Below are positions 1 through 12,501 of a DNA stretch of 12,501 nt, piece after piece. Numbering within the stretch: position 1 is the first letter of the stretch; every line of letters starts with the position of its first letter. A program made the position numbers and the translations under genes. The stretch is from a virus, in UHGV virus genome UHGV-1654647; one strand, given 5' to 3'. The notes below the pieces were generated by a model. It did not search any database and was not told the origin of the DNA. It saw only the letters and a program-made list of their open reading frames with translations.

Positions 1-606
1 TCCGAAATCACAGAGAGCCGGGCAGGTGGGAACCGGTATGGAACCGGTTTTCAGGGCGCGCAGCAGCGCCTCGCGGGAAAAATAAAACGTCGCGCCAATC
101 TGGCGGGATTTCAGGATATCGCGGATGCGGTGCTCAAGCCCGGCGCGATACCAGTGCAACTGATAGTCGAAAGACTGCTCAAAGAAAATCTGCTCCAGCT
201 TTTCGATGGCCTCGTCACTGAAAAAATTCTTTTTCGGTTTGCGGCGCCCGCCTTTGTTGCGGTTAGCGACGTTCGGATTAAGGTCTGCTTCGTTGCCGGT
301 CTGGCTGTAGCGGTTGACCCGTGCCAGTCGTTCAATCTGGCGTCCGAGCAGGTCAATTTCCTTGAAGTCACCGCCGGTTTTCTGCGGTTTGATGATGAGC
401 TGGGTCAGCCGCGCTTCCAGGCTCATTTCGACACGGCTGATGGGGGCAACGCTGTCCCAGCCGTCGCGCTGTTTCCAGCTCTGCACCGTCGGGCGTTTCA
501 TCTGCAACATGGCGGCAATCTGCGGCACGGAAAACCCCTGCCAGTACAGCAGCGCCGCCTGACGACGCGGGTCGTGTAAAAGAGTGGTGTCTGTGGTGAT
601 GGTCAT
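1..606 (-). CDS. P: Terminase large (ATPase) subunit, N-terminal 202 codons; 3' part lies beyond the window start
   Basis: Minus-strand frame is open from ATG at 604-606 down to position 1 with no stop (MTITTDTTLLHDPRRQAALLYWQGFSVPQIAAMLQMKRPTVQSWKQRDGWDS...). Divergent from the O-N-M-L operon exactly as in the P2 Q-P / O-N-M-L layout. Absent from the ORF track because it has no stop inside the window. Confidence 0.8.
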   Translation of the reverse strand, partial: MTITTDTTLLHDPRRQAALLYWQGFSVPQIAAMLQMKRPTVQSWKQRDGWDSVAPISRVEMSLEARLTQLIIKPQKTGGDFKEIDLLGRQIERLARVNRYSQTGNEADLNPNVANRNKGGRRKPKKNFFSDEAIEKLEQIFFEQSFDYQLHWYRAGLEHRIRDILKSRQIGATFYFSREALLRALKTGSIPVPTCPALCDFG

Positions 607-779
607 GAATACCTCGCCGTGATGAATACACGGCAAGGCTACTGAGTCGCGCCCCGCGATTCGCTAAGGTGCTGTTGTGTCAGTGATAAGCCATCCGGGA
701 CTGATGGCGGAGGATGCGCATCGTCGGGAAACTGATGCCGACATGTGACTCCTCTAATCACTATTCAGGACTCCTGACA
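607..779. promoter_or_regulatory. Divergent intergenic region between P (leftward) and O (rightward); expected site of two activator-dependent late promoters
   Basis: 173-bp non-coding gap between two divergently oriented start codons; AGGA Shine-Dalgarno at 767-770 ahead of O ATG 780; direct repeat GACTCCT at 747-753 and 769-775. In P2 the P and O late promoters (Ogr-activated) lie in this position. Exact -10/-35 and activator boxes not resolved by eye. Confidence 0.5.
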
Positions 780-1634
780 ATGGCAAAAAAAGCATCAAAA
801 TTCTTTCGTATCGGCGTTGAGGGTGACACCTGTGACGGGCGTGTCATCAGTGCGCAGGATATTCAGGAAATGGCCGAAACCTTTGACCCGCGAGTCTATG
901 GTTGCCGCATTAACCTGGAACATCTGCGCGGCATCCTGCCTGACGGTATTTTTAAGCGTTATGGTGATGTGGTCGAACTGAAGGCCGAAAAGATTGACGA
1001 TGATTCGGCGCTGAAAGGCAAATGGGCGCTGTTTGCGAAAATCACCCCGACCGATGACCTTATCGCGATGAACAAGGCCGCGCAGAAGGTCTATACCTCA
1101 ATGGAAATTCAGCCGAACTTTGCCAATACAGGCAAATGTTATCTGGTGGGTCTGGCCGTCACCGATGACCCGGCAAGCCTCGGCACGGAATACCTGGAAT
1201 TCTGCCGCACGGCAAAACACAACCCTCTGAACCGCTTCAAATTAAGCCCTGAAAACCTGATTTCAGTGGCAACGCCTGTTGAGCTGGAATTTGAAGACCT
1301 GCCTGAAACCGTGTTCACAGCCCTGACCGAAAAGGTGAAATCCATTTTTGGCCGCAAACAGGCCAGCGATGACGCCCGTCTGAATGACGTGCATGAAGCG
1401 GTGACCGCTGTCGCTGAGCATGTGCAGGAAAAACTGAGCGCCACTGAGCAGCGCCTTGCTGAGATGGAAACCGCCTTTTCCGCACTTAAGCAGGATGTGA
1501 CTGACAGGGCGGATGAAACCAGTCAGGCATTCACCCGCCTGAAAAACAGCCTCGACCATACCGAAAGTCTGACCCAGCAGCGCCGCAGCAAAGCCACCGG
1601 CGGTGGCGGTGACGCCCTGATGACGAACTGCTGA
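780..1634 (+). CDS. O: Capsid scaffolding protein (284 aa)
   Basis: ORF 714..1634; start chosen at internal ATG 780 (MAKKASKFFRIGVEGDTCDGRV...) which has an SD and gives the 284-aa length I recall for P2 gpO; first gene of the head operon, upstream of the major capsid gene. Confidence 0.88.
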   Translation: MAKKASKFFRIGVEGDTCDGRVISAQDIQEMAETFDPRVYGCRINLEHLRGILPDGIFKRYGDVVELKAEKIDDDSALKGKWALFAKITPTDDLIAMNKAAQKVYTSMEIQPNFANTGKCYLVGLAVTDDPASLGTEYLEFCRTAKHNPLNRFKLSPENLISVATPVELEFEDLPETVFTALTEKVKSIFGRKQASDDARLNDVHEAVTAVAEHVQEKLSATEQRLAEMETAFSALKQDVTDRADETSQAFTRLKNSLDHTESLTQQRRSKATGGGGDALMTNC

Positions 1635-1692
1635 CCGGCGTCAGTCAGTCCGGGAAAACCTTCACGATTAACCCTTAATTTCAGGAAAAACT

Positions 1693-2766
1693 ATGCGCCA
1701 GGAAACCCGCTTTAAATTTAATGCCTACCTGTCCCGTGTTGCCGAACTGAACGGCATCGACGCCGGTGATGTGTCGAAAAAATTCACCGTTGAACCGTCG
1801 GTCACCCAGACCCTGATGAACACCATGCAGGAGTCCTCTGACTTTCTGACCCGCATCAACATTGTGCCGGTCAGCGAAATGAAAGGGGAAAAAATTGGTA
1901 TCGGTGTCACCGGCTCCATCGCCAGCACCACCGACACCGCCGGTGGCACCGAGCGTCAGCCGAAGGACTTCTCGAAGCTGGCGTCAAACAAGTACGAATG
2001 CGACCAGATTAACTTCGATTTTTATATCCGCTACAAAACGCTGGACCTGTGGGCGCGTTATCAGGATTTCCAGCTCCGTATCCGTAACGCCATTATCAAA
2101 CGCCAGTCCCTTGATTTCATCATGGCCGGTTTTAACGGCGTGAAGCGTGCCGAAACCTCTGACCGCAGCAGCAATCCGATGCTGCAGGATGTGGCGGTCG
2201 GCTGGCTGCAGAAATACCGCAATGAAGCCCCGGCGCGCGTGATGAGCAAGGTCACTGACGAGGAAGGGCACACCACCTCTGAGGTCATCCGCGTGGGTAA
2301 GGGCGGTGATTATGCCAGCCTTGATGCACTGGTGATGGATGCGACCAACAACCTGATTGAGCCGTGGTATCAGGAAGACCCTGACCTTGTGGTGATTGTG
2401 GGACGTCAGCTACTGGCGGACAAGTATTTTCCCATCGTCAACAAGGAGCAGGACAACAGCGAAATGCTGGCCGCTGACGTCATCATCAGCCAGAAACGCA
2501 TCGGCAACCTGCCAGCGGTACGCGTCCCGTACTTCCCGGCGGATGCGATGCTCATCACGAAGCTGGAAAACCTGTCCATCTACTACATGGATGACAGCCA
2601 TCGCCGCGTGATTGAGGAAAACCCGAAACTCGACCGCGTGGAGAACTACGAGTCAATGAACATTGATTACGTGGTGGAAGACTACGCCGCCGGTTGTCTG
2701 GTGGAAAAAATTAAGGTCGGTGATTTCTCCACACTGGCTAAAGCGACCGCAGAGCCGGGAGCGTAA
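1693..2766 (+). CDS. N: Major capsid protein (357 aa)
   Basis: ORF 1693..2766, MRQETRFKFNAYLSRVAELNGIDAGDVSKKF...; recognised as the P2 gpN major capsid protein; length and position after the scaffold gene fit. Confidence 0.93.
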   Translation: MRQETRFKFNAYLSRVAELNGIDAGDVSKKFTVEPSVTQTLMNTMQESSDFLTRINIVPVSEMKGEKIGIGVTGSIASTTDTAGGTERQPKDFSKLASNKYECDQINFDFYIRYKTLDLWARYQDFQLRIRNAIIKRQSLDFIMAGFNGVKRAETSDRSSNPMLQDVAVGWLQKYRNEAPARVMSKVTDEEGHTTSEVIRVGKGGDYASLDALVMDATNNLIEPWYQEDPDLVVIVGRQLLADKYFPIVNKEQDNSEMLAADVIISQKRIGNLPAVRVPYFPADAMLITKLENLSIYYMDDSHRRVIEENPKLDRVENYESMNIDYVVEDYAAGCLVEKIKVGDFSTLAKATAEPGA

Positions 2767-2769
2767 CCG

Positions 2770-3513
2770 ATGACGAGTCCCGCACAGCGCCACATGATGC
2801 GGGTCTCGGCAGCGATGACCGCGCAGCGGGAAGCCGCCCCGCTGCGACATGCAACTGTCTATGAGCAGATGCTGGTTAAGCTCGCCGCAGACCAGCGCAC
2901 ACTGAAAGCGATTTATTCAAAAGAGCTGAAGGCCGCGAAAAAACGCGAACTGCTGCCGTTCTGGTTGCCGTGGGTGAACGGCGTGCTGGAGCAGGGCAAA
3001 GGTGCACAGGATGACATTCTGATGACGGTCATGCTGTGGCGTCTGGATACCGGCGATATTGCCGGTGCGCTGGAGATTGCCCGTTATGCCCTGAAGTACG
3101 GTTTGACCATGCCGGGTAAACACCGCCGTACCCCGCCGTACATGTTCACCGAGGAGGTAGCGCTTGCGGCCATGCGCGCTCACGCTGCCGGTGAGTCTGT
3201 GGATACCCGCCTGCTGACGGAGACCCTTGAACTGACCGCCACGGCTGACATGCCTGATGAAGTGCGCGCAAAGCTGCACAAAATCACCGGTCTGTTTCTG
3301 CGTGACGGTGGTGATGCCGCCGGTGCGCTGGCTCACCTGCAACGTGCGACACAGCTCGACTGTCAGGCAGGCGTCAAAAAAGAGATTGAACGACTGGAGC
3401 GGGAGCTGAAACCGAAGCCGGAGCCGCAGCCCAAAGCGGCCACCCGCGCCCCGCGTAAGATCCGGAGCGTGACACCGGCAAAACGTGGACGCCCGAAAAA
3501 GAAAGCCAGTTAA
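2770..3513 (+). CDS. M: Terminase small (endonuclease) subunit (247 aa)
   Basis: ORF 2770..3513, starts 1 nt after N stop; basic K/R/P-rich C-terminus (KPKPEPQPKAATRAPRKIRSVTPAKRGRPKKKAS); position and length match P2 gpM. Confidence 0.88.
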   Translation: MTSPAQRHMMRVSAAMTAQREAAPLRHATVYEQMLVKLAADQRTLKAIYSKELKAAKKRELLPFWLPWVNGVLEQGKGAQDDILMTVMLWRLDTGDIAGALEIARYALKYGLTMPGKHRRTPPYMFTEEVALAAMRAHAAGESVDTRLLTETLELTATADMPDEVRAKLHKITGLFLRDGGDAAGALAHLQRATQLDCQAGVKKEIERLERELKPKPEPQPKAATRAPRKIRSVTPAKRGRPKKKAS

Positions 3514-3612
3514 CAACCGAATGCGCCCCGCGCCAGGGCGGCACGCCGGTCAGTGAGGGTGAATCACCTGACACTGCACCGGCGTCCACCGCCCGACTTT
3601 TCAGAGGTAGTC

Positions 3613-4122
3613 ATGATGACGCTGATTATTCCGCGAAAGGAGGCTCCCGTGTCCGGTGAGGGTACGGTGGTCATCCCGCAACCGGCAGGCGACGAGCCGG
3701 TGATTAAAAACACGTTCTTTTTTCCCGATATCGACCCGAAGCGCGTCCGGGAACGTATGCGCCTTGAGCAGACCGTCGCCCCCGCCCGTCTGCGTGAGGC
3801 CATCAAGTCAGGCATGGCGGAGACGAATGCGGAGCTGTACGAGTACCGCGAACAGAAAATTGCCGCCGGTTTTACGCGTCTGGCGGACGTCCCGGCGGAC
3901 GACATCGACGGTGAAAGCATCAAAGTTTTTTACTACGAGCGCGCCGTGTGTGCGATGGCGACCGCGTCGCTTTATGAACGTTATCGCGGTGTGGATGCCA
4001 GTGCGAAAGGCGACAAGAAGGCCGACAGCATTGACAGCACCATTGATGAGCTGTGGCGGGATATGCGCTGGGCAGTGGCGCGCATCCAGGGCAAGCCGCG
4101 CTGCATCGTGAGTCAAATCTGA
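3613..4122 (+). CDS. L: Head completion/stabilisation protein (169 aa)
   Basis: ORF 3553..4122; start placed at ATG 3613 (MMTLIIPRKEAPVSGEG...), giving 169 aa as I recall for P2 gpL; stop overlaps X start (TGATG). Confidence 0.88.
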   Translation: MMTLIIPRKEAPVSGEGTVVIPQPAGDEPVIKNTFFFPDIDPKRVRERMRLEQTVAPARLREAIKSGMAETNAELYEYREQKIAAGFTRLADVPADDIDGESIKVFYYERAVCAMATASLYERYRGVDASAKGDKKADSIDSTIDELWRDMRWAVARIQGKPRCIVSQI

Positions 4123-4325
4123 TGAAGACCTTTGCGCTACAGGGCGACACGCTCGACGCCATTTGTGTCCGGTATTACGGGCGCACTGAGGGCGTGGTTG
4201 AGACCGTGCTCGCCGCAAATCCGGGACTGGCTGAACTGGGTGCGGTGCTGCCACACGGCACCGCCGTCGAACTGCCCGACGTTCAGACCGCGCCCGTGGC
4301 TGAAACTGTCAATCTGTGGGAGTAA
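4122..4325 (+). CDS. X: Tail protein X (67 aa, LysM-like fold family)
   Basis: Internal ATG 4122 of ORF 4053..4325 (MKTFALQGDTLDAICVRYYGRTEGVVETVLAANPGLAELGAVLPHGTAVELP...); start overlaps L stop; size and position match P2 gpX. Confidence 0.85.
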   Translation: MKTFALQGDTLDAICVRYYGRTEGVVETVLAANPGLAELGAVLPHGTAVELPDVQTAPVAETVNLWE

Positions 4326-4328
4326 CGC

Positions 4329-4610
4329 ATGACAGCAGAAGAAAAAAGCGTCCTGTCGCTTTTCATGATTGGGGTGCTGATTGTTGTCGGCAAGGTGCTT
4401 GCCGGTGGTGAACCCATCACCCCGCGTCTGTTTATCGGGCGCATGTTGCTCGGTGGTTTTGTCTCGATGGTTGCCGGTGTTGTTCTGGTGCAGTTTCCTG
4501 ACCTGTCACTGCCTGCGGTGTGCGGTATCGGCTCCATGCTGGGTATCGCCGGTTATCAGGTGATTGAGATTGCCATTCAGCGCCGCTTTAAGGGCAGGGG
4601 GAAACCGTAA
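4329..4610 (+). CDS. Y: Holin (93 aa)
   Basis: Small protein with hydrophobic transmembrane stretches (LSLFMIGVLIVVGKVLAGG..., GGFVSMVAGVVLVQF...) and charged C-terminus; sits immediately upstream of the endolysin; stop overlaps K start (TAATG). Confidence 0.88.
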   Translation: MTAEEKSVLSLFMIGVLIVVGKVLAGGEPITPRLFIGRMLLGGFVSMVAGVVLVQFPDLSLPAVCGIGSMLGIAGYQVIEIAIQRRFKGRGKP

Positions 4611-5107
4611 TGCCGGTTATTAACACGCATCAGAATATCGCCGCCTTTCTCGACATGCTGGCCGTGTCCGAAGGGACGGCAAACCATCCGCTGACGAAAA
4701 ACCGGGGCTATGACGTGATAGTCACCGGACTGGACGGGAAGCCGGAAATTTTCACCGACTACAGTGACCACCCGTTCGCACATGGCCGACCGGCGAAGGT
4801 GTTTAACCGTCGCGGTGAAAAATCCACGGCCTCCGGTCGCTATCAGCAGCTTTACCTGTTCTGGCCGCATTACCGCAAACAGCTTGCCCTGCCGGATTTC
4901 AGTCCGTTGTCACAGGACAGACTTGCCATTCAGTTGATCCGCGAACGCGGTGCACTGGATGACATCCGGGCGGGACGCATTGAGCGCGCCATTTCACGCT
5001 GTCGCAATATCTGGGCGTCCCTGCCGGGTGCCGGTTACGGTCAGCGTGAGCATTCACTGGAAAAACTGGTCACCGTCTGGCGTGCCGCTGGCGGCGTACC
5101 GGCTTAA
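4610..5107 (+). CDS. K: Endolysin (lysozyme/muramidase-like, 165 aa)
   Basis: ORF 4610..5107, MPVINTHQNIAAFLDMLAVSEGTANHPLTKNRGYDVIVTG...; second gene of the lysis cassette; length matches P2 gpK. Confidence 0.88.
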   Translation: MPVINTHQNIAAFLDMLAVSEGTANHPLTKNRGYDVIVTGLDGKPEIFTDYSDHPFAHGRPAKVFNRRGEKSTASGRYQQLYLFWPHYRKQLALPDFSPLSQDRLAIQLIRERGALDDIRAGRIERAISRCRNIWASLPGAGYGQREHSLEKLVTVWRAAGGVPA

Positions 5108-5121
5108 ACGGAGTAAACACC

Positions 5122-5547
5122 ATGAAGAAATTATCCCTTTCACTGATGCTGAACGTGTCGCTGGCGCTGATGCTGGCACTGTCCCTGATTTACCCGCAGA
5201 GCGTGGCCGTCAATTTTGTCGCCGCCTGGGCGATTCTGGCGACGGTTATCTGTGTGGTTGCCGGTGGTGTCGGCGTGTATGCCACTGAGTATGTGCTGGA
5301 ACGCTACGGGCGGGAGCTGCCGCCGGAATCGCTGGCCGTGAAGATTGTCGCGTCGCTGTTTTTGCAGCCGGTGCCGTGGCGCAGACGGGCGGCGGCTCTG
5401 GTGGTGATGGTGGCGACGTTTATCTCGCTGGTCGCTGCCGGGTGGATTTTTACCGCGCTGATTTACCTCGTGGCGTCGGTGTTCTTCCGGTTGATACGCA
5501 CGGCCTGTCGTCAGCGTTTTGAGGGGCGGGAACCATGTCAAAGCTGA
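5122..5547 (+). CDS. lysA: Lysis timing/regulator membrane protein LysA (141 aa)
   Basis: ORF 5122..5547, strongly hydrophobic with multiple predicted transmembrane segments; located between endolysin and spanin genes as in P2. Confidence 0.8.
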   Translation: MKKLSLSLMLNVSLALMLALSLIYPQSVAVNFVAAWAILATVICVVAGGVGVYATEYVLERYGRELPPESLAVKIVASLFLQPVPWRRRAAALVVMVATFISLVAAGWIFTALIYLVASVFFRLIRTACRQRFEGREPCQS

Positions 5548-5960
5548 TGATTGTGCTGGTTGTGTTGTTATCACTGGCGGTGGCCGGTCTGTTTCTGGCG
5601 AAGCATGAAAACGCCAGCCTGCGCACCTCGCTGGACAGGGCGAACAACGTCGCCAACGGGCAGCAGACGACCATCACCATGCTGAAAAATCAGCTTCATG
5701 TTGCCCTCGCCAGAGCAGACAAAAACGAGCTGGCGCAGGTGGCACTGCGTCAGGAACTGGAGAACGCGGCGAAGCGTGAAGCACAGCGCGAGAAAACCAT
5801 CACGAGGTTACTGAATGAAAACGAAGATTTTCGCCGCTGGTACGGCGCTGGCCTGCCTGATGCTGTGCGCCGGTTGCACCAGCGCCCGGCCTGCACCGAC
5901 GCCAGTGATTGTCGCCAACGCCTGCCCGAAAGTGAGCCTTTGCCCGATGCCGGGCAGTGA
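5535..5960 (+). CDS. lysB: Inner-membrane spanin (Rz-like) LysB (141 aa)
   Basis: ORF 5535..5960; N-terminal TM anchor (MSKLMIVLVVLLSLAVAGLFLA) followed by a charged, coiled-coil-like periplasmic region; start overlaps lysA end by 13 nt. Confidence 0.83.
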   Translation: MSKLMIVLVVLLSLAVAGLFLAKHENASLRTSLDRANNVANGQQTTITMLKNQLHVALARADKNELAQVALRQELENAAKREAQREKTITRLLNENEDFRRWYGAGLPDAVRRLHQRPACTDASDCRQRLPESEPLPDAGQ

Positions 5961-6105
5961 CCCGGAGACGAACGGCGATTTAAGTGCCGATATCCGACAG
6001 CTTGAGAACGCGCTGGCACGCTGTGCCAGCCAGGTAAAAATGATTAAACACTGTCAGGACGAAAACGATGCTCAAACCCGACAGCCTGCGCAGGGCGCTG
6101 ACTGA
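5815..6105 (+). CDS. lysC: Outer-membrane lipoprotein spanin (Rz1-like) LysC (96 aa), in +1 frame overlapping lysB 3' end and R 5' end
   Basis: ORF 5815..6105; signal peptide with Cys-containing lipobox-like motif (MKTKIFAAGTALACLMLCAGC) then Pro-rich mature part (TSARPAPTPVIVANACPKVSLCPMPGSDPE); overlapped architecture as in P2 lysB/lysC. Confidence 0.75.
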   Translation: MKTKIFAAGTALACLMLCAGCTSARPAPTPVIVANACPKVSLCPMPGSDPETNGDLSADIRQLENALARCASQVKMIKHCQDENDAQTRQPAQGAD

Positions 6106-6535
6106 TGCCGTCACGGTGCTGAAAACCAGTCCCGAGATGCTGCGGATATTCGTTGATAACGGGAGTATTGCCTCCACGCTGGCGACGTCGTTGTCATTCG
6201 AAAAGCGTTACACGCTCAATGTGATTGTGACCGACTTTACCGGTGATTTTGACCTGCTCATCGTGCCGGTGCTGGCGTGGCTGCGGGAAAATCAGCCCGA
6301 CATCATGACCACCGACGCAGGCCAGAAAAAGGGCTTCACGTTTTATGCAGACATCAACAATGACAGCAGCTTTGATATCAGCATCAGCCTGATGCTGACC
6401 GAGCGCACGCTGGTCAGTGAGGTGGACGGCGCACTGCATGTGAAGAATATCCCGGAACCCACGCCGCCGGAGCCGGTCACCCGCCCGGTGGAGCTTTATA
6501 TCAATGGCGAACTGGTGAGCAAGTGGGATGAATGA
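6068..6535 (+). CDS. R: Tail completion protein R (155 aa)
   Basis: ORF 6068..6535; position after the lysis cassette and length match P2 gpR; stop overlaps S start (ATGAATGA). Confidence 0.87.
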   Translation: MLKPDSLRRALTDAVTVLKTSPEMLRIFVDNGSIASTLATSLSFEKRYTLNVIVTDFTGDFDLLIVPVLAWLRENQPDIMTTDAGQKKGFTFYADINNDSSFDISISLMLTERTLVSEVDGALHVKNIPEPTPPEPVTRPVELYINGELVSKWDE

Positions 6536-6980
6536 GTTTAAGCGTTTTGAAGACCGGCTGACCGGACTGATTGAATCGCTGTCACCGTCAGGGCGTCGGC
6601 GACTGAGCGCCGAACTGGCGAAACGTCTGCGGCAGAGTCAGCAGCGTCGGGTGATGGCTCAGAAAGCCCCGGACGGCACACCCTACGCGCCACGCCAGCA
6701 GCAGAGCGCCAGAAAAAAGACTAGTCGTGTTAAGCGAAAAATGTTTGCGAAACTTATCACCAGTCGTTTTTTGCATATCAGCGCCAGCACGGAACAGGCA
6801 TCAATGGAATTTTACGGCGGAAAGTCACCGAAAATTGCGAGCGTGCATCAGTTCGGTCTGTCGGAAGAAACCCGGAAAGACGGTAAGAAAATTGATTATC
6901 CGGCGCGTCCCCTGCTCGGCTTTACCGGTGAGGATGTGCAGATGATTGAAGAGATTATTCTGGCGCACCTCGACCGTTAG
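6528..6980 (+). CDS. S: Tail completion protein S (150 aa)
   Basis: ORF 6528..6980, MNEFKRFEDRLTGLIESLSPSGRRRLSAELAKRLRQSQ...; position and length match P2 gpS. Confidence 0.87.
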   Translation: MNEFKRFEDRLTGLIESLSPSGRRRLSAELAKRLRQSQQRRVMAQKAPDGTPYAPRQQQSARKKTSRVKRKMFAKLITSRFLHISASTEQASMEFYGGKSPKIASVHQFGLSEETRKDGKKIDYPARPLLGFTGEDVQMIEEIILAHLDR

Positions 6981-7046
6981 TTGTGCCATTCCCGACACCT
7001 CATCGTCACATTGCCGCCGGTATGACCCGGCGGCATCCTTCCCGTT
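6981..7046 (+). promoter_or_regulatory. S-V intergenic region with a perfect GC-rich hairpin (7013-7034) immediately before V; probable location of the V-operon late promoter or a 5' leader structure
   Basis: 66-bp gap; GCCGCCGG (7013-7020), loop TATGAC, CCGGCGGC (7027-7034) is a perfect 8-bp inverted repeat ending 12 nt before the V ATG; no obvious SD for V; no T-run after the stem. P2 has a late promoter in front of V. Confidence 0.35.
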
Positions 7047-7682
7047 ATGAACACTCTCGCAAATATTCAGGAACTCGCGCGCGCACTGCGCAACATGATC
7101 CGCACCGGCCTTGTCGTCGAAACCGACCTTGACGCCGGTCGTTGCCGTGTGCAGACCGGCGGCATGTGCACTGACTGGCTTCAGTGGCTGACCCATCGCG
7201 CCGGACGTTCGCGCACATGGTGGGCGCCTTCCGTGGGGGAACAGGTGTTGATTCTGTCCGTGGGCGGTGAACTCGACACGGCGTTCGTTCTGCCGGGGAT
7301 TTATTCCGGCGATAACCCTGCGCCGTCTGCGTCGGCGGATGCACTGCATATCCGTTTCCCTGACGGGGCGGTGATTGAGTATGAACCCGAAACCAGTGGA
7401 CTCACGGTAAGCGGAATTAAAACGGCCAGCGTGACGGCTTCTGATTCTGTTACTGCCACGGTGCCGGTGGTCATGGTGAAAGCATCAACCCGCGTCACCC
7501 TGGACACACCGGAGGTGGTCTGCACCAACAAGCTGATTACCGGCACGCTGGAAGTGCAGAAGGGCGGGACGATGCGCGGCAACATTGAACACACCGGCGG
7601 TGAACTCTCATCAAACGGTAAGGTACTGCATACCCATAAACACCCCGGCGACAGCGGCGGCACAACCGGGAGTCCTTTATGA
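7047..7682 (+). CDS. V: Baseplate central spike protein (211 aa)
   Basis: ORF 7047..7682; length and position match P2 gpV; stop overlaps W start (ATGA). Confidence 0.88.
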   Translation: MNTLANIQELARALRNMIRTGLVVETDLDAGRCRVQTGGMCTDWLQWLTHRAGRSRTWWAPSVGEQVLILSVGGELDTAFVLPGIYSGDNPAPSASADALHIRFPDGAVIEYEPETSGLTVSGIKTASVTASDSVTATVPVVMVKASTRVTLDTPEVVCTNKLITGTLEVQKGGTMRGNIEHTGGELSSNGKVLHTHKHPGDSGGTTGSPL

Positions 7683-8026
7683 CAGCGCGTTATCTCGGAA
7701 TGAATCGCAGTGATGGCCTGACTGTCACTGACCTTGAGCATATCAGCCAGAGTATCGGCGATATCCTGCGTACCCCCGTCGGCTCACGGGTGATGCGTCG
7801 TGATTACGGCTCGTTGCTGGCGTCAATGATTGACCAGCCGCAGACCCCGGCGCTTGAGTTGCAGATTAAGGTCGCCTGTTACATGGCGGTGCTGAAATGG
7901 GAACCCCGCGTAACCCTGTCATCCGTCACCACTGAGCGCAGTTTTGACGGGCGAATGACTGTCACTTTGACCGGCCAGCACAACGACACCGGCCAGCCAC
8001 TTTCGTTAACCATCCCTGTGAGTTGA
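7679..8026 (+). CDS. W: Baseplate wedge protein (T4 gp25-like, 115 aa)
   Basis: ORF 7679..8026, MTARYLGMNRSDGLTVTDLEHISQSIGDILRTPVGSRVMRRDYGS...; length and position match P2 gpW. Confidence 0.88.
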   Translation: MTARYLGMNRSDGLTVTDLEHISQSIGDILRTPVGSRVMRRDYGSLLASMIDQPQTPALELQIKVACYMAVLKWEPRVTLSSVTTERSFDGRMTVTLTGQHNDTGQPLSLTIPVS

Positions 8027-8030
8027 AACC

Positions 8031-8939
8031 ATGCCGATTATCGACCTGAACCAGCTACCCGCACCGGATGTGGTCGAGGAGCTGGACTTTGAAACCATTC
8101 TCGCCGAACGCAAGGCGACACTGATTTCCCTTTACCCGGAAGACCAGCAGGAGGCGGTCGCCCGTACCCTGACGCTGGAATCCGAGCCTCTCGTCAAACT
8201 GCTGGAGGAAAATGCTTATCGTGAGCTTATCTGGCGTCAGCGTGTGAATGAGGCTGCACGGGCGGTAATGCTGGCCTGTGCCGCCGGTAATGACCTTGAT
8301 GTGATTGGTGCCAATTACAACACCACGCGCCTGACTATCACCCCGGCAGATGATTCGACCCTCCCGCCGACACCGGCCGTGATGGAATCTGACACCGATT
8401 ACCGTCTGCGTATTCAGCAGGCGTTTGAAGGTTTAAGCGTCGCCGGGTCGGTGGGAGCCTATCAGTATCATGGTCGCAGTGCCGACGGGCGTGTCGCGGA
8501 TATTTCTGTAACCAGTCCGTCTCCGGCCTGCGTCACCATCTCTGTGCTGTCACGTGAAAATAACGGTGTTGCATCCGAAGACCTGCTGGCCGTGGTGCGT
8601 AACGCCCTTAATGGTGAGGACGTCAGGCCGGTGGCCGACCGCGTGACCGTGCAGTCTGCCGCCATCGTTGAATACCAGATAAACGCCACGCTTTACCTTT
8701 ACCCTGGTCCCGAAAGCGAACCCATCCGCGCTGCTGCCGTGAAAAAACTGGAAGCGTACATCACGGCACAGCACCGGCTGGGGCGTGACATCCGTCTGTC
8801 TGCCATTTATGCCGCTTTGCATGTGGAAGGCGTGCAGCGTGTCGAACTGGCTGCACCACTGGCCGACATCGTGCTCAACAATACGCAGGCGTCTTTCTGT
8901 ACCGAATACAGCGTCGTGACCGGAGGCTCGGATGAGTGA
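8031..8939 (+). CDS. J: Baseplate assembly protein J (302 aa)
   Basis: ORF 8031..8939; length and order match P2 gpJ; stop overlaps I start (ATGAGTGA). Confidence 0.88.
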   Translation: MPIIDLNQLPAPDVVEELDFETILAERKATLISLYPEDQQEAVARTLTLESEPLVKLLEENAYRELIWRQRVNEAARAVMLACAAGNDLDVIGANYNTTRLTITPADDSTLPPTPAVMESDTDYRLRIQQAFEGLSVAGSVGAYQYHGRSADGRVADISVTSPSPACVTISVLSRENNGVASEDLLAVVRNALNGEDVRPVADRVTVQSAAIVEYQINATLYLYPGPESEPIRAAAVKKLEAYITAQHRLGRDIRLSAIYAALHVEGVQRVELAAPLADIVLNNTQASFCTEYSVVTGGSDE

Positions 8940-9543
8940 TTCGCGACTGCTGCCGACCGGCTCATCACCGCTTGAAGTTGCCGCCGCAAAAGCCTGTGCG
9001 GAAATTGAAAAAACGCCGGTCAGTATTCGTGAGCTGTGGAACCCGGACACCTGCCCGGCAAATCTGCTGCCGTGGCTGGCGTGGTCATTTTCGGTTGACC
9101 GCTGGGATGATAAGTGGCCGGAAGCGACAAAACGCGCTGTTATCCGCGATGCGTATTTCATTCACTGCCATAAGGGCACTATAGGCGCAATCCGACGTGT
9201 GGTGGAGCCGCTCGGCTATCTGATTGAGGTGAGGGAGTGGTGGCAACTCAACGAGGAGCCGGGGACGTTCCGTATCGTTGTTGGCGTGCTTGAGCAGGGT
9301 ATTACCGAGGAAATGTATCAGGAGCTGGAGCGCCTCGTTGCTGATGCAAAACCGGCAAGCCGCCATCTGACGGGACTGGCTATCAGTTTAAGTACAACCG
9401 GCAACATTTTTGCCGGTGCGGGATGCTATCACGGCGACGCCCTGACGGTTTATCCCTACACCCCGGAGGCCATTATTGTCGGAGGGGATTATTTCCCGGC
9501 CTCGGCCATTCATTTAATTGATAACCTGAGAGTAAACGCATGA
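8932..9543 (+). CDS. I: Baseplate protein I (203 aa; apparently longer than the 176 aa I recall for P2 gpI)
   Basis: ORF 8932..9543, MSDSRLLPTGSSPLEVAAAKACAEIEKTPVSIRELWNPDTCPANLLPWLAWSF...; start overlaps J stop, stop overlaps H start (ATGA). Confidence 0.82.
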   Translation: MSDSRLLPTGSSPLEVAAAKACAEIEKTPVSIRELWNPDTCPANLLPWLAWSFSVDRWDDKWPEATKRAVIRDAYFIHCHKGTIGAIRRVVEPLGYLIEVREWWQLNEEPGTFRIVVGVLEQGITEEMYQELERLVADAKPASRHLTGLAISLSTTGNIFAGAGCYHGDALTVYPYTPEAIIVGGDYFPASAIHLIDNLRVNA

Positions 9544-11087
9544 CAGTGAAATACTACGCCATTCTGACTAATCAGGGCGCGGCACGGCTGGCTAACGCGA
9601 CGATGCTCGGCAGTAAGCTGAATCTGACGCAAATGGCCGTTGGTGATGCGAATGGTGTCTTGCCGACACCAGACCCGGCACAGACAAAACTGATTAATCA
9701 GAAACGCATTGCACCGCTGAATCTTCTGAGTGTTGACCCGAACAACCAGAGCCAGATTATTGCGGAGCAAATCATCCCTGAGAACGAGGGCGGATTCTGG
9801 ATCCGTGAGATTGGGCTTTATGATGATGAAGGCGTACTCATTGCGGTGGCGAACTGCCCGGAAACGTACAAACCGCAGTTGCAGGAAGGCAGCGGTCGTA
9901 CCCAGACTATCCGCATGATTCTGGTTGTCACGAATACCGAAGCCATCACGCTGAAAATCGACCCGTCGGTGGTACTGGCGACCCGTAAATACGTGGATGA
10001 TGAAGTTCTGGAATTAAAGCTGTATGTGGATGACCAGATGAGAAACCACATTGCCGCACAGGATCCTCATACCCAGTATGCACAGAAACATAATCCGACA
10101 TTTACCGGAGAACCAAAAGCGCCGACGCCTGCCGCAGGAAATAACACCACGCGGATTGCGACCACTGAGTTTGTTCAGGCCGCTATTACCGCTCTGATTA
10201 ACGGTGCGCCAGCCACGCTGGACACACTGAAAGAAATTGCCTCAGCCATTAACAATGACCCGAAATTCAGCACCACCATTAACAATGCGCTGGCACTGAA
10301 AGCTCCGCTGTCGAGTCCCGCACTTACCGGAACGCCAACAGCACCTACTGCGGCACAGTCGGTCAACAATACACAGATTGCCACCACGGCTTTTGTGAAA
10401 TCAGCAATTGCGGCAATGGTGGGTTCTGCCCCTGCGGCACTGGATACACTGAATGAACTGGCGGCGGCGCTGGGGAATGACCCTAACTTTTCAACAACAG
10501 TGCTTAATGCACTGGCAGGCAAACAACCGCTGGACAATACGCTGACTAATTTGAGTGGAAAGGATGTTGCCGGTCTTCTCGCATACCTTGGTTTGGGAGA
10601 AGGCTCTGCATTACCTGTTGGTGTCCCTGTTCCGTGGCCTTCAGCCACTCCGCCAACAGGCTGGCTGAAATGCAATGGTGCAGCTTTTTCTGCTGAAGAA
10701 TACCCGGAACTGGCAAAAGTTTACCCGACAAATAAATTGCCTGATTTACGTGGTGAGTTTATTCGTGGCTGGGATGACGGGCGGGGGATTGATACAGGTC
10801 GCTCTATTTTAAGTATTCAGGGATATGCAACGGAGGATCATGCTCATGGATTACCGTCAAGATCCACGATTGTGACTGATGCAACTATTAATTTCTATTT
10901 TGATGAAAGCTGGGTAAATAGTGGCACTGACATTATCAAAAGAGGAAACACAAACGATGCCGGATTACCAGCACCGGATTATGGAACCTTTAAAACATAT
11001 AAACAATCAGTGGCTGGTTTAGGTGCCGCAGCCTCAGAAACGCGTCCGCGTAATATTGCATTTAACTATATCGTGAGGGCAGTCTGA
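9540..11087 (+). CDS. H: Tail fibre protein (515 aa): baseplate-attachment N-terminus, two tail-fibre repeats, crossover site, then collar-like receptor-binding C-terminus
   Basis: ORF 9540..11087. N-terminus has P2 gpH-like motifs (EGGFWIREIGLYDDEGVLIAVANCPETYKPQLQEGSGRTQT). C-terminus has tail-collar-like motifs (PVGVPVPWPSATPPTGWLKCNGAAFSAEEYPELAKVY, LPDLRGEFIRGWDDGRG). Much shorter than the 669 aa I recall for P2 gpH. Confidence 0.88.
   Translation: MTVKYYAILTNQGAARLANATMLGSKLNLTQMAVGDANGVLPTPDPAQTKLINQKRIAPLNLLSVDPNNQSQIIAEQIIPENEGGFWIREIGLYDDEGVLIAVANCPETYKPQLQEGSGRTQTIRMILVVTNTEAITLKIDPSVVLATRKYVDDEVLELKLYVDDQMRNHIAAQDPHTQYAQKHNPTFTGEPKAPTPAAGNNTTRIATTEFVQAAITALINGAPATLDTLKEIASAINNDPKFSTTINNALALKAPLSSPALTGTPTAPTAAQSVNNTQIATTAFVKSAIAAMVGSAPAALDTLNELAAALGNDPNFSTTVLNALAGKQPLDNTLTNLSGKDVAGLLAYLGLGEGSALPVGVPVPWPSATPPTGWLKCNGAAFSAEEYPELAKVYPTNKLPDLRGEFIRGWDDGRGIDTGRSILSIQGYATEDHAHGLPSRSTIVTDATINFYFDESWVNSGTDIIKRGNTNDAGLPAPDYGTFKTYKQSVAGLGAAASETRPRNIAFNYIVRAV
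10092..10307 (+). repeat. Tail-fibre repeat unit 1 (protein-level, about 72 aa) within H
   Basis: NPTFTGEPKAPTPAAGNNTTRIATTEFVQAAITALINGAPATLDTLKEIASAINNDPKFSTTINNALALKAPL aligns residue by residue with unit 2; the DNA copies are diverged. Confidence 0.7.
10311..10532 (+). repeat. Tail-fibre repeat unit 2 (protein-level, about 74 aa) within H
   Basis: SSPALTGTPTAPTAAQSVNNTQIATTAFVKSAIAAMVGSAPAALDTLNELAAALGNDPNFSTTVLNALAGKQPL; same motif order as unit 1 (Pro/Thr linker, NNTxIATTxFV, APAxLDTLxEuAxAuxNDPxFSTTuxNALAxK). Confidence 0.7.
10576..10601 (+). repeat. Left crossover site of invertible segment (gix/hix/cix-like 26-bp site) inside H
   Basis: TTCTCGCATACC-TT-GGTTTGGGAGAA: two imperfectly palindromic 12-bp half-sites around a central TT; resembles recalled gixL TTCCTGTAAACCGAGGTTTTGGATAA and hixL. 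Its 3' 15 nt are repeated exactly, inverted, at 12447-12461. Encodes LLAYLGLGE in the H frame. Confidence 0.7.
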
Positions 11088-11689
11088 TGCATAAAGCAAT
11101 ATTAAATAGTGAGCTCATTGCAACAAAGGCAGGGGATGTTACCGTTTATAACTATGATGGTGAAACACGGGAATATATTTCCACTTCAAATGAATATCTT
11201 GCCGTTGGTGTCGGCATTCCGGCATGTTCCTGTTTAGATGCCCCTGGCACACATAAGGCTGGTTATGCAATCTGCCGTTCTGCAGATTTTAACTCATGGG
11301 AATATGTGCCAGACCATCGCGGTGAAACGGTCTATAGCACCGAAACAGGAGAATCAAAAGAAATCACCGCTCCGGGTGATTACCCTGAAAATACAACCAC
11401 TATCGCCCCATTAACGCCATATGATAAATGGGATGGTGAGAAATGGGTGACGGATACCGAGGCACAGCATAGCGCCGCAGTAGATGCAGCAGAAGCACAG
11501 CGCCAGTCGCTGATTGATACTGCAATGGCTTCCATCAGTCTGATTCAACTGAAATTGCAGGCCGGACGTAAACTGACGCAGGCAGAAACAACCCGGCTTA
11601 ACGCTGTGCTGGATTACATTGACGCGGTGACGGCAACAGATACCAGCACCGCGCCGGATGTCATCTGGCCTGAACTGCCGGAGGCGTAG
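11087..11689 (+). CDS. G: Tail fibre assembly chaperone (Tfa family, 200 aa), partner of the currently expressed H C-terminus
   Basis: ORF 11087..11689; start overlaps H stop (TGATG); C-terminal Tfa-type motif (NAVLDYIDAVTATDTSTAPDVIWPELPEA); position equivalent to P2 gene G, but 200 aa versus the 175 aa I recall. Confidence 0.85.
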   Translation: MHKAILNSELIATKAGDVTVYNYDGETREYISTSNEYLAVGVGIPACSCLDAPGTHKAGYAICRSADFNSWEYVPDHRGETVYSTETGESKEITAPGDYPENTTTIAPLTPYDKWDGEKWVTDTEAQHSAAVDAAEAQRQSLIDTAMASISLIQLKLQAGRKLTQAETTRLNAVLDYIDAVTATDTSTAPDVIWPELPEA

Positions 11690-12104
11690 GCCATTCAATA
11701 TCTGGCGCACCGGAAGTATCGACCAGTTCCAGTGCGTCCAGGTAATCCAGCCACAAATTATATTGCGCCAGTTCGTCACCTTTCAGACGACCAATAGCTG
11801 CTTTGCCAGGCCATTGCTTACTGTTCATATATTCGTTGGCATTATCAATAAGATTTTGCTTTTGAGCTGTGGCAAGGAGTATTGCTTCTTCAGGAGCCAT
11901 TGGTGGAATATCAACCCACTCAGGTTGTCCATCATCATTTGCACCGCGCGCTTTCCCTTCAGGTGGTGTTCCTGAATAAGTCAAAAATATTTCATCAGAT
12001 ACTGGCGTAATATCATCCGGTAAGCTGTCATATGAGCGATATAGCTCCAGCATATCTACCGGATAAAAAGCTAACGTCGTCCGTGAAAAATAATAATTAC
12101 TCAT
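11661..12104 (-). CDS. Alternative tail fibre assembly chaperone (Tfa family, 147 aa), convergent with G
   Basis: ORF 11661..12104 minus; MSNYYFSRTTLAFYPVD...; C-terminus YNLWLDYLDALELVDTSGAPDIEWPTPPAVQAR carries the same Tfa motif as G; 3' ends of the two chaperone genes overlap by 29 nt (11661-11689). Confidence 0.8.
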   Translation of the reverse strand: MSNYYFSRTTLAFYPVDMLELYRSYDSLPDDITPVSDEIFLTYSGTPPEGKARGANDDGQPEWVDIPPMAPEEAILLATAQKQNLIDNANEYMNSKQWPGKAAIGRLKGDELAQYNLWLDYLDALELVDTSGAPDIEWPTPPAVQAR

Positions 12105-12105
12105 A

Positions 12106-12501
12106 TCAGCACCCTATTGCAAACCAGCGAAAATTATAATTGCCACCAGAAGCATCACAGCGTAGAAGAAATCCTGTTCTGGTCATATTCCCTGCTGCCC
12201 CGGCAACAATTTTTCCGCCACCATTATCGTAGGACGTCACCACCTGAAAACATTGTGACGGAAAAGCGATTGTGAAATTCATCTCATTGCCTGTCGAGCC
12301 TACATAACCCGTACCTGCATCTCCTGCCCCCCATTGGATAATCAATCCTCCCGGTAACTTCTGATATCCCTTGCTGGCAATACTGTCAGAAAAAGAACTC
12401 ATATCCGGTATCTGACCTGAACCTGTTCCCACATCCCGTTTTGCCGCTTCTCCCAAACCAACGTTTATGAAAATGCAGAGATAACGGGCAAGTGGCATCA
12501 T
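12106..12501 (-). CDS. Alternative tail-fibre C-terminal receptor-binding cassette; probably start-less and expressed only when inversion fuses it to the constant part of H
   Basis: Minus-strand ORF running from the window edge to a stop at 12106-12108, 1 nt upstream of the alternative chaperone start; crossover site lies at codons NVGLGE; downstream Gly-rich sequence (AAKRDVGTGSGQIPDMSSFSDSIASKGYQKLPGGLIIQWGAGDAGTGYVGSTG...) unrelated to the plus-strand H C-terminus. The ATG ATG at 12496-12501 may be fortuitous. Confidence 0.65.
   Translation of the reverse strand: MMPLARYLCIFINVGLGEAAKRDVGTGSGQIPDMSSFSDSIASKGYQKLPGGLIIQWGAGDAGTGYVGSTGNEMNFTIAFPSQCFQVVTSYDNGGGKIVAGAAGNMTRTGFLLRCDASGGNYNFRWFAIGC
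12448..12473 (+). repeat. Right crossover site of invertible segment (inverted relative to 10576-10601)
   Basis: TTCTCCCAAACC-AA-CGTTTATGAAAA; its reverse complement TTTTCATAAACG-TT-GGTTTGGGAGAA shares the central dinucleotide and the whole right half-site with the left site; half-site TTCTCCCAAACC resembles the gix half-site TTATCCAAAACC. Confidence 0.7.

Follow-up and report, generated by a model that had tools for sequence, protein, structure and literature searches.

In 2014 inversion in the P2-like prophages of enteropathogenic Escherichia coli (EPEC) E2348/69 was shown by sequencing and the polymerase chain reaction (Goldberg et al., 2014; PMC4272514). In e14, a cryptic lambdoid prophage of E. 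coli K-12 and unrelated to P2, the inversion of the P segment by PinE, and in trans by PinQ, has since been quantified (PMC12529663); the repeat published for this segment, TTGGTTTGGGAGAAGG, is the right half of the left crossover site described below. For P2 itself, a preprint based on cryo-electron microscopy (10.64898/2026.09.14.750843) describes a wedge containing gpJ2-gpI; the gpH trimer is held there by its N-terminal adaptor, to which the flexible C-terminus of gpI, from R153 on, serves as a tether.

Here we describe the tail-fibre genes I, H and G, and the DNA that follows them, in the virus genome UHGV-1654647 (12,501 nucleotides (nt); this whole stretch is referred to as the window), which by its map of open reading frames (ORFs) and by megablast against phage records represents the late genes of a P2-like (Peduovirus) prophage. 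An earlier note, made from the DNA letters alone, had seen in these genes a replaced I-H-G module acquired by horizontal exchange. We conclude that the module is very probably an invertible host-range switch of the Gin/Cin/Pin (Din) type, by which the tail fibre of the prophage can be given either of two tips. This is a known kind of system, and the discovery value is small, since both invertible fibre segments of P2-like prophages and the e14 cassette have already been documented.

Crossover sites and the two isomers

A repeat search of the window found a 27-nt inverted repeat (10576-10602 / 12447-12473). When the whole window was scanned with the site pattern TTCTCNNAAACCNNGGTTTNNGANAA, allowing up to 3 mismatches, the only matches were at 10576 and 12448, inverted to each other, with 0.00 expected by chance; additional crossover sites, as in a multi-inversion shufflon, were not found in the window. 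Both arms fit the design of Gin/Cin/Pin sites, TTCTCNNAAACC-NN-GGTTTNNGANAA, their central dinucleotides TT and AA agree once the opposite orientation of the two sites is allowed for, and the arms have 15 identical nt. The segment between them holds four coding units: the tip of H and gene G on the plus strand, and a second Caudo_TAP chaperone and a Gp53-like_C tip on the minus strand (Table 1). Inversion of 10588-12461 in silico keeps the reading frame and gives a protein H' of 467 amino acids (aa), with the joint after H residue 349, which is then followed by the second chaperone.

The inverted construct was compared with complete E. coli genomes, and in strain AH01 (NZ_CP055251) it was found in one piece with 100% identity and 100% coverage. 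The window itself aligns with AH01 at 99.98% for 37-10602 on the plus strand, at 99.95% for 10588-12464 on the minus strand and at 100% for 12447-12501 again on the plus strand, and the two prophages differ essentially only in the orientation of 10588-12461. The annotation of AH01 carries the fused H' protein of 467 aa. Both isomers exist in nature, and a 99.98%-identical prophage in which the inter-site segment is flipped requires a very recent inversion at these sites. Among complete E. coli genomes none was found that has the full region in the orientation of the window at >=99%.

In AH01 an invertase gene (197 aa) starts 28 nt past the position at which the window ends. Its product aligns end to end with Gin of Mu and PinE of e14 and has the catalytic motif YVRVS(9)TNDQ. 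The gene is likewise annotated in SCU-316, phage T22-P2 and S164. Paired inverted 26-bp sites, a frame-preserving swap of two tips each with a chaperone of its own, and the occurrence of both orientations in nature assign the locus to the Din family.

Table 1. Features of the fibre module in UHGV-1654647 (positions in the window; E, expect value; GC3, G+C content at third codon positions)
Feature	Position	Strand	Basis or remark
Gene I, 203 aa	8932..9543	+	Tail_P2_I core at residues 7-143: Pfam PF09684, E 3e-56; TIGR01634
Transition zone and left mosaic breakpoint in I	9220..9368		P2/Wphi identity ~70%; no nucleotide homology after 9368
Gene H as now assembled, 515 aa, constant part and StfE-type tip	9540..11087	+	ORF, Pfam
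Constant part of H, residues 1-349, Peduovirus-type shaft	9540..10587	+	Alignment with P2 gpH
Left 26-bp crossover site, TTCTCGCATACC-TT-GGTTTGGGAGAA	10576..10601		In H codons 346-354; inverted repeat and consensus scan
Invertible segment, 1874 bp including both central dinucleotides	10588..12461		Reverse-complemented in AH01 between identical flanks
Expressed variable tip, StfE type, tail-collar domain	10588..11087	+	Identity to StfE; GC3 0.319
Gene G, 200 aa, TfaE-type fibre assembly chaperone for the expressed tip	11087..11689	+	Caudo_TAP, E 3.5e-33
Second chaperone (U'-like), 147 aa, for the silent tip	11661..12104	-	Caudo_TAP, E 1.5e-28
Silent alternative tip, Gp53-like_C	12106..12461	-	Pfam PF21882, E 1.9e-18
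Right 26-bp crossover site, TTCTCCCAAACC-AA-CGTTTATGAAAA	12448..12473		In minus-strand open frame; inverted repeat and consensus scan

Proteins of the fibre module

The lengths of 203, 515 and 200 aa that the earlier note had given for I, H and G agree with the ORF map. In an alignment with the I proteins of P2, Wphi and T22, residues ~147-203 of I are a replaced C-terminal tail, 27 aa longer than that of P2. The H protein begins with a Phage_tail_fib N-terminal domain (Pfam, residues 1-150) and has a Collar domain at residues 361-408; by sequence search of the PDB its residues 356-513 match a short tail fibre (9cuy) and the tip of T4 gp37 (2xgf). The N-terminus of H had been credited with only motif-level similarity to P2 gpH, which was too low an estimate: besides the full Phage_tail_fib domain, residues 26-332 share 50.6% identity over 312 aa with residues 27-329 of P2 gpH (E 1.6e-85).

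G and the U'-like protein score 115 and 99.9 bits, respectively, with Caudo_TAP (PF02413; cut-off 22.1 bits), the family of lambda Tfa, Mu U and P2 G, and each gene directly follows that of a tip. The genes of the two chaperones run towards each other, with 29 nt in common (11661-11689). The frame of the silent tip stays open across the right crossover site up to an ATG at 12501 (MMPLARYLCIFINVGLGE...), so that a free ORF of 131 aa results. NCBIfam gave no match for H, G, U' or the silent tip, and the PDB sequence search gave none for G.

An 18-nt inverted repeat (11608-11625 / 11734-11751) was considered as a terminator and rejected; it encodes, on opposite strands, the conserved motif LDYIDA/LDYLDA of the two chaperones. 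All terminator-like matches in a scan of 8900-12501 lie within coding sequence, and promoter-like sites in the same interval are at chance level, with none found for the silent ORF.

The lowest G+C content (GC) of the window, ~0.40, is that of a patch inside the expressed tip (10821-11036). Within the StfE cassette this patch alone differs between the window and e14 on one side and T22-P2 on the other; it is probably the hypervariable region that contacts the receptor.

Mosaic boundaries

The GC is 0.574 from 43 to 9368, 0.523 from 9369 to 10587, 0.451 from 10588 to 11400 and 0.456 from 11866 to 12461, and backbone windows of equal length are never as low as any of the three later segments. 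GC3 falls in parallel steps, from 0.58-0.74 via ~0.54 to 0.31-0.38. Composition is evidently not uniform across the window, and the AT-richer region that the earlier note had noticed downstream is real, the steps in GC and GC3 going far beyond the variation of the backbone.

The breakpoint does not lie at the start of I (8932), where the note had put it. Nucleotide identity to P2 stays at 96-98% to ~9046 and decays within I, with values per 100 nt from 8947 of 97, 92, 88, 69 and 58%; by blastn and alignment the homology stops at 9368, which is codon 146 of I, and in megablast most Peduovirus records likewise cease to match at 9362-9368. Beyond this point the sole nucleotide match to P2 is a 73% patch at 10314-10529. 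High identity to P2 does not continue through H and G: the tip of H and the G protein are unrelated to H and G of P2. Nor does the module end at 11689, for foreign DNA on the minus strand reaches 12473 or beyond.

The loss of P2 homology, the e14-like cassette and the GC3 steps together support the proposal, read from sequence, that the host-range module was acquired by horizontal exchange. Taken as a static replacement, this proposal is incomplete, because the module appears to be a programmed inversion switch, with its left boundary inside I, where the core embedded in the baseplate meets the tether for the fibre, and its right boundary beyond 11689.

The left joint and the gpI tether

The structure of the P2 wedge offers a possible reason for the position of the left joint: it would fall inside I because the C-terminal tether of gpI grips the N-terminal adaptor of gpH. 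This was followed up in 77 loci at the species level, each with a gene related to the constant part of H; these loci are not phylogenetically independent. The more alike the I tails are, the more alike are the adaptors of H (r 0.87, and a partial r of 0.80 when the I core is controlled for), and the I core adds nothing further (partial r -0.15). The co-variation is consistent with, and no proof of, co-adaptation of tether and adaptor, and the gpI tether and the fibre appear to have been exchanged as one unit.

Distribution and nested mosaicism

The P2-like phages and prophages with invertible fibres (those of EPEC E2348/69, T22 (= Peduovirus magyaro), S164, pro483 and AH01) agree with the window in the backbone, in the I tail and constant part of H, in the left site and in where the invertase gene lies; the content of their cassettes varies. 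S164 is collinear with the window at 97% identity until the left site ends, at exactly 10602, and has a different cassette beyond. T22 matches to 10820, departs from the window in 10821-11036, matches once more in 11037-11840 (91.7%) and is different from there on. Homologues of the StfE-type tip are present in 764 phage records, including P1-sized, lambdoid, T4-like (gp37), cyanophage and Ralstonia P2-like ones. From the points of divergence in S164 and T22 and from the spread of the tip it follows that the crossover site and the tip are points of exchange. For the alternative cassette (11866-12446) there is no close match among phage isolates (best 67.5%); it is present in a few E. coli chromosomes. 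These exchange points fit the classical picture of shuffled tail-fibre genes that reportedly goes back to Haggard-Ljungquist et al. in 1992 and Sandmeier in 1994.

Of 5426 complete E. coli genomes, 3561 match some part of 8932-12501. A relative of the H constant part was examined at 79 loci, each from a different species; a Pin/Gin-like gene lies within 6 kb downstream in 8 of them, which are from Kluyvera, Escherichia sp., Dryocola, Pseudocitrobacter, Mixta, Enterobacter soli and two Pantoea. Site-like sequences at the junction of the constant and variable parts of H also occur with no invertase gene within 6 kb (L019, L046, L063, L073, L074, L077 (~6596-6815)), and P2 gpH retains the homologous peptide EYLGLQE; such sequences could be relics of former sites or could reflect a conserved coding motif.

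Several draft contigs (L011, L012, L013 and L036) stop inside the constant part of H or just past it, as is expected when assemblers meet an invertible or repeated cassette.

The P2-like backbone and the left end of the window

The first gene of the window is P, of which the 5' part is present on the minus strand; it is followed on the plus strand by O, N, M, L, X, Y, K, lysA, lysB, lysC, R, S, V, W, J, I, H and G, in full synteny with P2 through G except for orf30. The best phage records in megablast are KC618326, a P2-like phage from E. coli O157:H43 T22 with 96.6% identity across 93% of the window, MET_P1_103_31, S164 and pro483. With the P2 reference (NC_001895) blastn gave 97.7% identity for 43-6982 and 94.7% for 7047-9368.

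The lengths of P2 proteins that the earlier note had given are all correct (18 of 18 match NC_001895): O 284, N 357, M 247, L 169, X 67, Y 93, K 165, lysA 141, lysB 141, lysC 96, R 155, S 150, V 211, W 115 and J 302 aa, and for the fibre end I 176, H 669 and G 175 aa. The ORFs of the window are consistent with these lengths through J; the ORF listing gives O 306, L 189 and X 66 aa, owing to alternative upstream or downstream starts.

The window lacks P2 orf30, a minus-strand gene of 786 nt that in P2 separates S from V; its place would be at 6981-7046, and its absence had been overlooked in the earlier note. The spacing between S and V is only 66 nt, as it is in T22, S164 and AH01.

Gene P, for the terminase ATPase, starts at 606 on the minus strand; it resembles its P2 and AH01 counterparts as far as codon 187 and is unrelated thereafter. 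Positions 1-43 of the window are DNA unrelated to the prophage. The first 42 nt have no match in any complete E. coli genome, and 1-55 has no exact match in IMG/VR. A 36-mer from this stretch was found exactly in 19 human-gut metagenome contigs (L088-L106), which otherwise share nothing with the window. This junction suggests that the source is chimeric or concatenated, or else that the prophage is truncated.

Proposed mechanism and alternative explanations

The fibre module, made up of the C-terminal tether of gpI, gpH and the chaperone, would stem from an alternative lineage of such modules that ends in a Din-type inversion switch. A serine invertase would recombine the site in H, just after the constant shaft, with its inverted partner 1.87 kb downstream. 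The invertase gene would lie immediately downstream, past the end of the window, as in the closest relatives, and Pin enzymes from other prophages could act in trans, as shown for e14. In the present orientation the shaft would be joined to the StfE-type tail-collar tip, followed by the TfaE chaperone, and in the flipped orientation to the Gp53-like tip, followed by the TfaP-related chaperone. A population of lysogens would in this way release two types of virion that differ in receptor specificity, which would amount to host-range bet-hedging. The present copy presumably still switches, and its two tips presumably bind different receptors.

Several points weigh against this interpretation. 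The window ends before the invertase gene, so that switching of the present copy is only inferred. The left half of the left site departs from the consensus (GCATACC vs CCAAACC). The Fis-dependent recombinational enhancer of such systems usually sits in the 5' part of the invertase gene, and a crude scan for its pair of sites (G-N13-C) in the 5' regions of the AH01 invertase gene, gin and pinE found a pair with the right spacing in gin alone. The foreign DNA at 1-43 interrupts P, so this copy of the prophage may be defective or the contig chimeric. As to the joint in I, the co-variation of tether and adaptor is inseparable from simple physical linkage.

The steps in composition and the loss of P2 homology would need a single exchange only, and one might therefore picture a static mosaic in which one past recombination swapped I-H-G and in which the repeats are fossils, with no switching at present. 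The survival of site-like sequences without an invertase gene in many of the related loci, and of the EYLGLQE motif in P2 gpH itself, fits this picture. We nevertheless consider it unlikely, since the AH01 prophage has precisely the inter-site segment flipped, since the two cassettes, with their chaperones and the two sites, have all stayed intact, and since all close relatives carry the invertase gene. The orientation in AH01 could in turn be ascribed to a choice made by the assembler, or to RecA-mediated recombination at short repeats, rather than to the invertase. Assemblers do choose one orientation at a heterogeneous locus, and the contigs mentioned above do end in H; but an assembler's choice itself implies that both orientations were among the reads, and the 15 identical nt of the arms are insufficient for efficient homologous recombination by RecA. 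The joint, moreover, lies exactly at the canonical Din site that is shared with e14 and at which Pin-dependent inversion has been measured (PMC12529663). Either origin of the AH01 orientation is in our opinion extremely improbable.

The broken P gene allows yet another interpretation, namely that of a domesticated element which serves the host: a defective prophage, interrupted at 43, whose switch was kept since a fibre-tip product helps the host. In variants of this interpretation the 131-aa ORF (12106-12501, minus strand) would block receptors like StfE2 of e14, or the tail would be used like a tailocin. The end of P homology at codon 187 and the unrelated DNA at 1-43 speak for such a role, as does the architecture of the silent ORF, which is that of StfE2 with an StfE-type leader and an StfP-related tip; StfE2 has been reported to block the adsorption of T2 (PMC12529663). 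That tip, however, is only 38% identical to StfP, the scan gave no promoter for the ORF, and the window's genes for head, lysis and tail are all intact and 99.98% identical to those of the apparently complete AH01 prophage. That the left junction also matches 19 gut-metagenome contigs devoid of the prophage argues for chimerism and not for a biological cause. We regard the domesticated element as very unlikely, and its receptor-blocking and tailocin-like variants as no less so. The invertible host-range switch remains the interpretation that we favour.

Implications

Two further proposals, that 12106-12501 on the minus strand is made as a free protein and that fibre swaps in Peduovirus obligatorily carry the gpI tether, are rather doubtful when taken jointly. 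If the former were true, the free protein could modulate the cell surface or block superinfecting phages and would serve lysogen as well as virion; if the latter were true, a joint at codons 146-153 of I would be a rule for engineering the host range of P2-type phages. The position of the left joint at the boundary of gpI core and tether, together with the co-variation, is in any case a practical hint for fibre swaps in P2-type phages and tailocins.

For annotation it is of importance that the host-range module spans both strands and reaches past gene G, that calls for gene H vary with orientation (515 vs 467 aa) among otherwise identical prophages, and that assemblies tend to break at an invertible fibre locus or to freeze one isomer of it.

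Comparison with P2, Mu, P1 and e14

With canonical P2 the locus has in common the I core, the N-terminal collar-fibre domain of H and a Caudo_TAP chaperone, in the same order. The differences are that in P2 the I tail is 27 aa shorter, H (669 aa) has a fixed tip and G has 175 aa, that crossover sites, second cassette and invertase are lacking, and that G is followed by fun(Z).

The comparison of fibre modules covered Mu and e14. The G segment of Mu (S/U, S'/U', gin) has the same architecture: a constant part, a site within the gene, two pairs of tip and chaperone on opposite strands and an invertase gene outside. The 26-bp sites of Mu share the core design AAACC-NN-GGTTT, whereas the segment is ~3 kb long, as compared to 1.9 kb in the window. 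Between S, U, S' and U' of Mu and H, G, U' and the tips of the window there is no protein similarity at E 1e-3, and because of this the link to Mu is architectural only. The C segment of P1 (cin) would likewise have this architecture.

Among the closest known systems is also the P segment of e14, from which one of the two cassettes originates. Positions 10585-11865 of the window are 94% identical in nucleotide sequence to the stfE/tfaE half of the P segment; residues 350-514 of H are 97.6% identical to residues 13-177 of StfE, G is 97.5% identical to TfaE over 200 aa, and the right crossover site is identical in 26 of 26 positions to the site beside pinE. The other half has diverged: the second chaperone resembles TfaP only in its C-terminal 70 aa (77%), and the second tip is the distant relative of StfP referred to above. 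The segment of 1874 bp in the window corresponds to one of 1797 bp in e14, and the StfE cassette occupies the expressed position in the window and the silent one in MG1655. In the window the tips are carried by a 349-aa Peduovirus gpH shaft on a P2 baseplate, whereas e14 has the short lambdoid N-terminus of StfP and no counterpart of the H constant part or of the I tail. In e14, as in the window, the two chaperone genes (tfaP and tfaE) converge with an overlap of 29 nt, and the invertase gene (pinE) is located directly outside the right site, an arrangement that in the lineage of the window is seen in AH01.

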